DNA of 64,000 nucleotides from the sequence record PZ338877.1. One strand, 5' to 3'. This document shows positions 27,529 to 29,126 of the stretch, in pieces. The notes beneath the pieces are model-generated. The model did not search any database. It was not told the origin of the DNA and was given only the letters and a program-made list of their open reading frames with translations. Source of the DNA: a phage. A program made the position numbers and the translations under genes. Positions within the stretch are counted from its first letter, which is position 1. Each line of letters opens with the position of its first letter.

Positions 27529-27599
27529 TGGTACTCCATATCGGATTCGAACCGATACATAACACAGATTTTAAGTCTGGCCTCTCTGCCAATTGGAGT
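27529..27599 (-). tRNA. tRNA, isotype undetermined (possible TAA anticodon)
   Basis: T-arm ATCGG-TTCGAAT-CCGAT and acceptor pairing clear; anticodon arm ambiguous, short body. Confidence 0.4.
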
Positions 27600-27609
27600 A
27601 ATGGAGCAT

Positions 27610-27685
27610 TGGCGGGGGATGTTGGAATTGAACCAACTTCTTCGATTTCAAAGACCGAGGTTTTAACCTTGTAAACTAATCCCCT
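27610..27685 (-). tRNA. tRNA-Gln (TTG)
   Basis: T-loop TTCAATT, anticodon stem TCGGT/ATCGA, loop CT-TTG-AA. Confidence 0.5.
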
Positions 27686-27693
27686 TTAAATCT

Positions 27694-28251
27694 TTACTTT
27701 CTTAGTGGATGAATAAAGAATGCCAACATAACTCTTTCCCTTGAGAATGCTCTTTCTTCTGGGACAACACTTTTAAGTTTCCATCCAACATAAATTCTCC
27801 AGTAGAATTGTTTACCAAAGACTTTAATTGATGGGATAAAGGCGAATAATCCCCAAGCATTACTGTTCCACATTAGGAGATAACCTGTCTGATTATCTTC
27901 AGGGTCAGAACTTACGTTGATATTACCTTTCCACTTAGTAACATCTTTTACATCTCTTCCTAACACATGGTAAGAGAAGTTATAAGCTTTGTTTCTCCAG
28001 AGCCATCCAACTCTCTGCAAATAGACACCCAGCTTACCAATCTTTCTAATCTTAGCCCATCTTTTAATGTGACCTTCATCACCATCAATTGGGTTGTCAT
28101 ATGTCTCCATCCATCTGAATCCGAAAGGTAGATGTCCTTTCTTCTCACTATAGAATGGAACTACAAAAGGTGCTAAGATAACTGCTAAGGTTGCTGCCAA
28201 TGGGTCTAACAAAGCTAGGAAAATCCATGAAGCATACTTCAAATATCTCAT
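27694..28251 (-). CDS. membrane protein embedded in tRNA cluster
   Basis: 185 aa; hydrophobic N-terminal segments, Trp/Lys-rich. Confidence 0.5.
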   Translation of the reverse strand: MRYLKYASWIFLALLDPLAATLAVILAPFVVPFYSEKKGHLPFGFRWMETYDNPIDGDEGHIKRWAKIRKIGKLGVYLQRVGWLWRNKAYNFSYHVLGRDVKDVTKWKGNINVSSDPEDNQTGYLLMWNSNAWGLFAFIPSIKVFGKQFYWRIYVGWKLKSVVPEERAFSRERVMLAFFIHPLRK

Positions 28252-28270
28252 CTAAATAGCCTCTTTAAAT

Positions 28271-28346
28271 TGGTGCAGGATAAGGGATTCGAACCCCTAT
28301 TAACAGCTTCGTAGACTGCTGCTCTATCCATTTGAACTAATCCTGC
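28271..28346 (-). tRNA. tRNA-Arg (ACG)
   Basis: Exact 7-bp acceptor GCAGGAT/ATCCTGC, T-loop TTCGAAT, anticodon loop CT-ACG-AA. Confidence 0.5.
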
Positions 28347-28460
28347 TTACCTACAAGAACACCATACAGTTTTTCACAATCTTTGTTTTTACGTCTGTTT
28401 AGGTATGACGCTCTAAACTTTTTTGCTATTGACTTATCACTCATAGTGCTCTCCCAAAAT

Positions 28461-28538
28461 TGGTGTTCCAAGACGGATTCGAACCGTCACTAGTACAAGG
28501 TTTGAGCTTGCATCCTCTGCCAATTGGGATATTGGAAC
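28461..28538 (-). tRNA. tRNA with CAA anticodon (Leu-type anticodon but short type-I body)
   Basis: Perfect 7-bp acceptor GTTCCAA/TTGGAAC, T-arm GACGG-TTCGAAT-CCGTC, anticodon stem GCAAG/CTTGT, loop CT-CAA-AC. Confidence 0.45.
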
Positions 28539-28539
28539 A

Positions 28540-28612
28540 TGGTGCTCACTAAAGGACTTGAACCTTTTTCTTCATCTTGTAAGGGTGATGTTTTACCATA
28601 TAAACTAAGCGA
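28540..28612 (-). tRNA. tRNA-like sequence (possible pseudo-tRNA)
   Basis: Good T-arm AAAGG-TTCAAGT-CCTTT and CCA end, but acceptor and anticodon stems pair poorly. Confidence 0.3.
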
Positions 28613-28705
28613 GTATGAAAGAGGTCTGAAGTTGTGCCGCTCACTCAACTCCGTGGAATTTGTTACGGTCTTCAGTTGACACCAGCGGTCTTTCACTTGA
28701 CCTCT
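28612..28705 (-). ncRNA. structured RNA candidate bounded by 7-bp terminal inverted repeat
   Basis: AGAGGTC...GACCTCT ends; internal CTGAAGACCGT motif similar to the repeated elements further right. Confidence 0.25.
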
Positions 28706-28709
28706 GAAT

Positions 28710-28785
28710 TGGTGCTCCCACAAGGATTCGAACCCTGATAAGTTGCTTACAAGGCAACCGTAATAGCCAATTATACGATAGGAGC
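28710..28785 (-). tRNA. tRNA-Thr (TGT)
   Basis: T-loop TTCGAAT, anticodon stem GTTGC/GCAAC, loop CT-TGT-AA. Confidence 0.6.
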
Positions 28786-28802
28786 ATTAATTTGGAGCAT
28801 CC

Positions 28803-28877
28803 AGAGGGAATCGAACCCTCAACCTCAGTTTGGAAGACTGTAATTTTCCCGTTTAAACTATGGATGCACTAATTGGT
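28803..28877 (-). tRNA. tRNA-Gly (TCC)
   Basis: Perfect acceptor GCATCCA/TGGATGC, T-arm GAGGG-TTCGATT-CCCTC, loop CT-TCC-AA. Confidence 0.6.
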
Positions 28878-28883
28878 GGAGTC

Positions 28884-28959
28884 ACTGAGAATTGAACTCA
28901 GTTCCCAAGTTTGCAAAACTCGAATTTTAACCATATAAACTATGACCCCAATGTTTGGT
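28884..28959 (-). tRNA. tRNA-Ala (TGC)
   Basis: T-arm CTGAG-TTCAATT-CTCAG, anticodon loop TT-TGC-AA. Confidence 0.6.
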
Positions 28960-28965
28960 ACAGGT

Positions 28966-29041
28966 GGAGGGAATTGAACCCATCGTCTTACTGATTAAGA
29001 GTCAGCCGCATAACCATTTTGCTACACCTGCATTGATTTGG
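28966..29041 (-). tRNA. tRNA-Lys (CTT)
   Basis: T-loop TTCAATT, anticodon stem GCTGA/TCAGT, loop CT-CTT-AA. Confidence 0.5.
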
Positions 29042-29048
29042 TAGGAGA

Positions 29049-29126
29049 CAAGGGATTCGAACCCTCAAACACCAACTTCTAAGGATGGTAGGTTTACCAA
29101 TTACCGTCAATCTCCCATTAAATCTT
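29049..29126 (-). tRNA. tRNA, isotype undetermined (possible TAG anticodon)
   Basis: T-loop TTCGAAT and acceptor pairing with two G-U pairs; anticodon stem has a mismatch. Confidence 0.4.

Follow-up and report, generated by a model that had tools for sequence, protein, structure and literature searches.

Armless leucine tRNA genes of a Felix O1-like phage belong to a class common in phages and rare in cells

The window analysed here, a stretch of 64,000 nucleotides (nt) of phage DNA (sequence record PZ338877.1), comes from a Felix O1-like myovirus of the genus Felixounavirus and contains, within a large cluster of transfer RNA (tRNA) genes, three tRNA-Leu genes with the anticodons UAA, CAA and UAG. 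All three lack the long variable arm, a stem-loop of at least 10 nt, that marks bacterial tRNA-Leu. Armless tRNA-Leu genes of this kind occur commonly in phages that are unrelated to one another but only rarely in cells, and in this sample they make up about one fifth to one third of the phage tRNA-Leu genes that carry the AAUUGG D-loop motif. From the identity elements that the three genes retain, we infer that they quite probably encode leucine-accepting elongator tRNAs, charged by the host leucyl-tRNA synthetase (LeuRS) and used in translation. The genes themselves are not new, as the Felix O1 RefSeq entry annotates the orthologues as tRNA-Leu and hundreds of records carry annotations of them; their annotation matters because several records label them tRNA-OTHER or pseudo.

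The gene finder ARAGORN recovered the three genes with Leu anticodons in canonical stems, and each lies above the RF00005 gathering score of 29 in Rfam (Table 1). This combination of a gene finder with covariance scores, which an initial annotation made from the sequence alone had put forward as a check, bears out its reading of the anticodons as TAA, CAA and TAG, as well as its remark that the long variable arm is absent; misassigned anticodons are ruled out by both programs, and the suspicion that the genes had been misread by eye is refuted. That annotation had placed the CAA gene exactly, had left off 8 nt from the 5' end of the TAA gene (27599 for 27607), and had found the TAG gene but placed it 10 nt off (29049-29126 for 29039-29116).

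The UAA, CAA and UAG genes share a 7-bp acceptor stem, A73, an encoded CCA end and the T loop UUCGAAU, and their anticodons stand in 7-nt loops with U33 and A35. The full set of corner residues, A14, A15-U48, G18G19, an A after Y20, and U54/U55/C56/A58, is present in all three. Their variable regions are 7, 6 and 5 nt long, respectively, each ending in U48, as compared with at least 13 nt in the type II tRNAs of the same cluster (two tRNA-Ser and one tRNA-Tyr). The UAA gene begins with a G1.U72 pair and has the D stem CUC/GAG, the D loop CAAUUGGCAGA and the anticodon loop CUUAAAA. The CAA gene has G1-C72, an identical D loop, CAAUUGGCAGA, and the anticodon loop CUCAAAC, with C38. The UAG gene again has G1.U72, together with the anticodon loop CUUAGAA, in which A37 occupies the place of the cellular G37, and the D arm AAUUGGUAAA, in which an extra U precedes A14 and the stem is irregular.

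The D arms of the UAA and CAA genes are of the bacterial tRNA-Leu type, with a 3-bp stem and an 11-nt loop N-AAUUGGYAGA. When the three are compared with type I tRNAs, a variable loop of exactly 5 nt is found in the UAG gene only, and the D arm, with 3 bp and a 13.22 mismatch, is not of type I. Judged by sequence, the bodies are best described as hybrids, tRNA-Leu minus its arm, and not as generic type I tRNAs. The initial annotation's phrase "type I bodies" therefore holds for the variable region and fails for the D arm, which is the Leu-specific arm of type II tRNAs. The extra U before A14 recurs in the tRNA-Leu(UAG) genes of the subfamily Ounavirinae (window 29039-29116; L003:6001-6078; L344:2096-2173), and in this lineage the 3' strand of the D stem also contains a C at a place where the T5-like homologues carry an A. 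The two features suggest a register shift of the D stem, which would account for the lower Rfam score of this gene.

As comparators we took leuZ, leuX and leuW of Escherichia coli (E. coli), identified by their coordinates. These type II tRNAs share with the phage genes the anticodons, A73-CCA, the 3-bp D stem, the 11-nt AAU(U/C)GGYAGA loop, U48 and the T loop, and presumably the synthetase. Their variable regions, however, form stem-loops of about 13-17 nt, as against 5-7 nt in the phage, so that the only large difference in the alignment is a clean gap of roughly 8-10 nt at the variable arm.

The Leu genes are more conserved than their flanks in Felixounavirus and its relatives. They hardly vary over about 270-300 phage records. 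For the UAA gene, 216 of 273 records show an identity of 99% or more, and most Felixounavirus records have exactly its sequence, whereas the surrounding 2.3 kb reaches at least 99% identity in only 2 of 314. Over that 2.3-kb region, the window shares 97.5% identity with Escherichia phage CL1 and 95.6% with Salmonella phage Felix O1.

Covariation was assessed in an alignment of the class (n = 150), composed of the three window genes and 147 other short tRNA-Leu with less than 90% mutual identity. Cloverleaf pairing is kept in 98.1% of the alignment cells, both partners change in 19 of the 20 pairs, and covariation scores 1.06, as compared with 0.24 after shuffling and at most 0.20 with slid partners. 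The cloverleaf of the short class is thus supported far beyond chance. In the same alignment A73 is present in all 150 members, U48 in 149 and A15 in 148, U33 and A35 vary hardly or not at all, and 125 members have a variable loop of exactly 5 nt; among the short viral tRNA-Leu, A73 is found in 182 of 182 and the A15-U48 combination is kept in 181. Since the scan pattern included the D-loop and T-loop motifs, the conservation of these motifs is in part ascertainment, whereas A73 and U48 lay outside the pattern and their conservation is independent evidence. Intact stems (save for single mismatches), conservation above the flanks and covariation of the class all speak against the suggestion of the initial annotation that the genes might be degenerate pseudo-tRNAs, while its description of them as unusual tRNAs is supported by the Leu anticodons, canonical stems and short variable regions.

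The distribution of the short form was examined by pattern scans that required a Leu D loop and an anticodon NAR, followed by a variable distance to the T loop. With the short distance alone, at least 120 IMG/VR contigs match. In matched scans that allowed both lengths, the short form occurred at 25 of 120 viral loci (a count judged from the locus numbering; 19 of 80 among the loci listed) but at only 3 of 120 cellular loci (Fisher p = 9e-6). The distance to the T loop is bimodal, being either 16 nt or 22-30 nt (modes 24 and 26), and the cellular sample is empty between the two. Where a locus has at least eight tRNAs, 29 of 87 Leu genes are short, against 1 of 41 where it has one or two. In these same loci, tRNA-Ser (84-96 nt) and tRNA-Tyr (79-94 nt) retain their length, and only Leu is shortened; the sole exception among the Ser lengths is a single putative Ser(gga) of 72 nt called by ARAGORN.

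Named phages with short tRNA-Leu include the T5-like chee24 (UAA and UAG, 77 nt each), a Seunavirus of Cronobacter (78 and 77 nt), the Vequintavirinae phage TH18 (77 nt), the Erwinia phage Hena2 of the genus Kolesnikvirus (77, 78 and 77 nt), and phages of Mycobacterium, Lactobacillus, Myxococcus, Aeromonas and Xanthomonas (74-77 nt). T5-like and other large virulent phages carry the same armless class, annotated in GenBank as tRNA-Leu, although they belong to different phage families. The armless tRNA-Leu genes in cellular sequences lie in Gordonia (L246:491-566), Herbiconiux (L280:2732-2806) and a metagenome-assembled genome of Planctomycetota (L293:3550-3794), the last with three armless tRNA-Leu genes in a row followed by a tRNA-Tyr. 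We considered a prophage origin for these three loci and rejected it, as the neighbouring open reading frames (ORFs) matched subtilase, histidine kinase, glutamate synthase and sigma factors in Pfam and nothing phage-like, so that the surroundings look chromosomal.

Many phages carry long and short tRNA-Leu together. The Ounavirinae Pectobacterium phage Wc4, for instance, has a short UAG gene beside an 87-nt, long-armed UAA gene (L003:8238-8324), and the two forms therefore coexist even within this subfamily. When the variable region was removed, the nearest neighbour of 29 of 188 short genes was a long tRNA-Leu, with 70-96% identity. This suggests that the arm was lost repeatedly and not in one ancient lineage, as far as noisy trees of 68 nt allow. 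A search of E. coli genomes by BLAST with a long phage tRNA-Leu returned only 29-nt matches in the T arm. The UAG gene of the window aligns without gaps to the tRNA-Leu(UAG) of Tequintavirus (T5-like), with an identity of about 84%, and homologues of the CAA gene occur in Erwinia and Mycobacterium phages. Armless tRNA-Leu genes have probably been exchanged horizontally between phage families. In the Mooglevirus Shigella phage Sf14, an unrelated short tRNA-Leu(UAG) occupies the same position in the cluster (L342:2112-2188), and tRNA genes appear to have been swapped between coliphage families.

In the account that we favour, the Leu genes would be transcribed together with the rest of the 26-gene cluster and then processed, and host LeuRS would charge the products by way of A73 and the corner formed by the D and T loops (A14, A15-U48, G18G19 and the A after Y20). 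The UAA and CAA anticodons would decode UUA/UUG, and UAG would decode CUA/CUN. The arm itself would have been trimmed to a minimum, a loop of 5-7 nt, probably because it is dispensable for LeuRS, and the simplest explanation of its loss would be this dispensability combined with a deletion bias under short-term selection in the phage. Seryl-tRNA synthetase (SerRS), on the other hand, relies on this arm, which would explain why the arm is kept in tRNA-Ser.

What is known of leucine identity fits this account. In E. coli it resides in A73, A15-U48, G18G19, A20a and the D/T-loop corner, and not in the anticodon or the arm (PMC9976931). Minimal tRNA-Leu variants from which the arm was deleted stay active (PMC9976931); such laboratory constructs, described in 2002 and cited in the same source, keep A73 and the D/T corner and serve LeuRS as substrates for both charging and editing, although the phage forms differ from them in being natural genes under purifying selection. 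These rules for LeuRS and SerRS match the phage pattern, in which Leu is pruned and Ser and Tyr are not. Furthermore, a bacterial LeuRS is able to charge a natural type I tRNA-Leu, for which the shortest variable loop compatible with good charging is 5 nt including position 48 (PMC6614811), and the modal variable loop of the phage class equals this minimum. All known E. coli LeuRS determinants and the encoded CCA are kept in the three genes, which disfavours the proposal in the initial annotation that they might be decoys.

Two other natural or cellular systems bear comparison. The type I tRNA-Leu(CAA) of Streptomyces coelicolor (S. coelicolor) is, like the phage forms, natural and non-mitochondrial, has a 5-nt variable loop, and occurs beside type II tRNA-Leu in cells with a single LeuRS, which charges it (PMC6614811). 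It differs in having C48 and no dependence on A73 and in needing a special leucine-specific domain of the S. coelicolor enzyme (ScoLeuRS), whereas the phage tRNAs, which are virus-encoded, keep the identity set of E. coli type, with A15-U48 and an A73 that does not vary. Animal mitochondrial tRNA-Leu(UUR/CUN) are likewise armless, with identity based on A73 and A14 (PMC9976931); they have degenerate D and T loops and a dedicated LeuRS, in contrast to the canonical G18G19, the UUCGAAU T loop and the host enzyme of cytoplasmic type in the phage case.

The codon usage of the phage, which is AT-rich, suits the three anticodons. Within the ORFs of the window, TTA accounts for 28.8% of Leu codons, CTA for 12.3% and CTG for 13.7%, while in E. 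coli CTG makes up about half of the Leu codons, and UUA, UUG and CUA are read by minor host tRNAs. The anticodons would thus fit a role in codon supply. The same role was concluded for the three Leu tRNAs of Sf14, for which the tRNAscan isotype models placed Leu at the top, with scores of 67.4, 49.1 and 60.2 (PMC12482277); the Sf14 UAA and CAA genes are orthologues of those in the window, and its UAG gene is the unrelated short sequence mentioned above.

Several observations weigh against this account. Type I tRNA-Leu(CAA) of S. coelicolor was not charged by the E. coli enzyme (EcLeuRS), which has been described as specific for type II (PMC6614811); that tRNA, however, has C48 and so is without the A15-U48 element that the phage tRNAs keep. 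Dispensability of the arm leaves unexplained why arm loss is nearly absent from cells (3 of 120 loci). ScoLeuRS is more efficient on the type II form (PMC6614811), and by analogy such a preference could be the reason why cells keep the arm. In single-sequence folding by minimum free energy (MFE), only the CAA gene, and neither UAA nor UAG, adopts the cloverleaf. Computed folds of AU-rich tRNAs without modifications are often wrong, and covariation provides far stronger evidence, for which reasons we do not weigh the MFE result against function. The UAG gene, in addition, has a U.U mismatch in its anticodon stem, the irregular D arm and A37 in place of G37. Finally, our literature search found no aminoacylation or tRNA-seq data on the three tRNAs; a preprint on nanopore tRNA-seq covers T4 only.

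The alternative that survives best, though we consider it unlikely, is that armless tRNA-Leu represents a widespread counter-measure of phages, in which the arm, and often G37, is dropped while LeuRS still charges the tRNA, so that nucleases or toxins that read the arm, or the phage's own host-shutoff nuclease, are evaded and the armless copies sustain leucine decoding once host tRNA-Leu has been destroyed. Infection by T-even phages is accompanied by cleavage of host tRNA-Leu1. The roughly eightfold enrichment of short forms in viral over cellular loci, their concentration in large phage tRNA clusters and the apparent recurrence of arm loss would all be in keeping with evasion, as would the differences that separate phage from cellular Leu tRNAs at G37 and in their anticodon loops (PMC12482277). 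There are also precedents for recognition of the arm: the human antiviral protein SLFN11 prefers type II tRNAs, with arm deletion lowering the cleavage of tRNA-Leu (PMC11615386), and the toxin MenT3 anchors on the long loop of tRNA-Ser (PMC11541572). If evasion were true, it would constitute a bacterial parallel of Schlafen-type restriction in animals. The literature that we searched, however, yielded no bacterial defence that is directed at tRNA-Leu by way of the arm, and relaxed constraint together with deletion would explain the pattern equally well. Moreover, long and short tRNA-Leu stand side by side in many phages, and tRNA-Ser and tRNA-Tyr keep their long arms and would hence remain vulnerable, although here the phage may have no choice. 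A related idea is that removal of the arm guards fast-evolving phage tRNA-Leu against mis-serylation.

We regard it as very improbable that the tRNAs escape charging by LeuRS altogether and, as decoys or sponges, take up some host factor that binds tRNA, or are decaying relics that programs still recognise as tRNA genes. The failure of EcLeuRS on one natural type I tRNA-Leu (PMC6614811) could be taken in this sense, as could the Rfam scores, which at 40-47.5 bits belong to the lowest of the cluster, and the lack of a cloverleaf by MFE in two of the three. Covariation of four stems over 150 members and the near-invariance of A73, U48, U33 and A35 are nevertheless unlike a relic, a decoy would not need an anticodon, A73 and an encoded CCA together, and the anticodons match codons that the phage uses heavily.

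Least probable of all, to a degree that we consider marginal, is charging with another amino acid by a synthetase that reads the type I body, with recoding of UUR/CUN during infection: yeast mitochondria offer precedents (PMC7609411) and the isotype scores of the Sf14 UAG tRNA, a different gene from that of the window, lie close together (Leu 67.4, Ile2 65.7, Lys 63.4; PMC12482277), but none of the three window genes has G3.U70 (the Ala determinant), SerRS cannot do without the long arm, their D loop is of the Leu-specific kind, and UUR/CUN codons occur in the phage ORFs at frequencies ordinary for Leu. Among the other E. coli synthetases that charge tRNAs with A73, most recognise the anticodon, and here they would meet Leu anticodons in all three.

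Apart from the arm, there are departures from cellular tRNA-Leu at the 1-72 pair and position 37 in many short viral tRNAs, and at position 38 in the CAA gene of the window. G1.U72, present in two of the three window genes, is found in 77 of 182 short viral tRNA-Leu but is rare in cellular ones (7 of 121). Among tRNA-Leu that read CUN, nearly all cellular genes carry G37 (86 of 87), but it is found in 60 of 86 long and only 31 of 87 short viral genes; A37 is seen in 54 of 87 short viral as against 1 of 87 cellular genes (loci L006-L220 and L221-L340). The enzyme TrmD makes m1G37 on G37, and the UAG tRNA of the window, with A37, presumably cannot receive this modification. The motif A36-A37-A38 is needed for i6A37 and for methylation by TrmL (PMC9976931), and it is broken by C38 in the CAA gene.

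We found no description of armless phage tRNA-Leu in the literature searched, which included a review of non-canonical tRNAs, although the T5 sequencing papers of the 1980s may have noted it; a 2025 paper on this gene cluster in Sf14 nowhere uses the word "variable" (PMC12482277). In 2019, a single Streptomyces type I tRNA-Leu was presented as a first for bacteria (PMC6614811). The group described here includes classic coliphages, both T5-like and Felix O1-like, and is under strong structural selection. If our sample holds, the long-arm rule for tRNA-Leu has a large natural exception, and evolution has already tested which features of tRNA-Leu are needed by LeuRS. The role of the arm in cells, and what phages gain by losing it, whether evasion of nucleases or avoidance of mis-serylation, would then be directly testable.

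Table 1. Positions of the tRNA-Leu genes and of other features of the tRNA cluster in the window.
Feature	Position	Strand	Basis and remarks
tRNA-Leu(UAA), 79 nt	27529..27607	minus	ARAGORN; Rfam RF00005 47.5 bits
tRNA-Leu(CAA), 78 nt	28461..28538	minus	ARAGORN; Rfam RF00005 47.0 bits
tRNA-Leu(UAG), 78 nt	29039..29116	minus	ARAGORN; Rfam RF00005 40.0 bits
Whole tRNA cluster	26334..31530	minus	26 genes; two protein ORFs inside, ~26508-27250 and ~27694-28251
tRNA-Ser(GCU), 93 nt, long variable arm kept	26414..26506	minus	ARAGORN; internal comparator
tRNA-Ser(UGA), 90 nt, long variable arm kept	29371..29460	minus	ARAGORN; internal comparator
tRNA-Tyr(GUA), 88 nt, long variable arm kept	30887..30974	minus	ARAGORN; internal comparator
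tRNA-Val(UAC), 75 nt, A1.C72 mismatch atop acceptor stem	28540..28614	minus	ARAGORN; Rfam 55.3 bits
Rod-like hairpin, 86 nt, 7-bp closing stem AGAGGUC/GACCUCU, between tRNA-Thr and tRNA-Val	28620..28705	minus	Folding
Promoter-like sites upstream of cluster	31586-31557; 31677-31649		Consensus matches only
Terminator-like hairpin downstream of cluster	26171-26154		Consensus match only

All of the tRNA genes that ARAGORN finds in the cluster lie on the minus strand, and 23 of the 26 exceed the RF00005 gathering score; both tRNA-Ser and the tRNA-Tyr have tRNA-Sec as their only Rfam match, below threshold. The tRNA-Ser(UGA) gene ends in an encoded G-C-C-U, unlike most tRNAs of the cluster, which encode CCA, and its product would need repair by the CCA-adding enzyme. 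The sequence that the initial annotation had described as tRNA-like with a non-pairing acceptor (28540-28612) proves to be a good tRNA-Val(UAC) gene, in which only the first pair, A1.C72, is mismatched. This mismatch is present in the window phage and in Felix O1, whereas the Mooglevirus orthologues have G1-C72.

The neighbouring stem-bounded element, previously placed at 28612-28705, is real, with a 7-bp stem that pairs 28620-28626 with 28699-28705. It folds as a rod with an MFE of -29.9 kcal/mol (z = -2.5), and it matches no Rfam family. The element is kept in 260 phage records, in Felixounavirus, Mooglevirus and Suspvirus, and further copies lie next to the tRNA-Gly of a Vequintavirinae phage (L341:3001-3084) and in an IMG/VR contig of 121 kb (L373). 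The copies have a nearly identical 50-nt core and show a compensatory change from G-C to U-A in the closing stem, along with a G.U pair that is possible only on the tRNA-sense strand. The rod looks like a small structured RNA that is probably co-transcribed with the tRNAs, and it may be processed from their transcript as a stable small RNA. The tRNA cluster of T4 contains stable RNAs, "species 1 and 2", which are perhaps comparable. We also considered a degenerate type II tRNA, which is ruled out by the absence of any Rfam or ARAGORN signal and by the rod fold.

Between the tRNA genes, spacers on the minus strand gave sub-threshold Rfam matches to transfer-messenger RNA (tmRNA; 29776-29965, 15.9 bits, E = 0.0024) and to a microRNA-like hairpin (29112-29211, 31.7 bits), both of which are probably chance or unrelated hairpins. 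In Felix O1, a gene for an HNH endonuclease separates tRNA-Thr from tRNA-Gly (L001:4588-5001), with more such genes elsewhere in the cluster, whereas in the window the gap between tRNA-Thr and tRNA-Gly is only 7 nt (28785-28793) and has no HNH gene; the cluster would thus be a hotspot for the gain and loss of homing endonucleases. The Felixounavirus tRNA region also turns up, with 96.6% identity, in the 147-kb record GU169904.1 ("Staphylococcus phage SA1") and in a few records labelled as Campylobacter or Pseudomonas phages, all of which look like chimeric or mislabelled assemblies. Finally, the tRNA-Glu(UUC) of chee24 (L002:4438-4531) is 94 nt long according to both ARAGORN and GenBank, far above the normal length for tRNA-Glu, and may contain an insertion or an extra arm.

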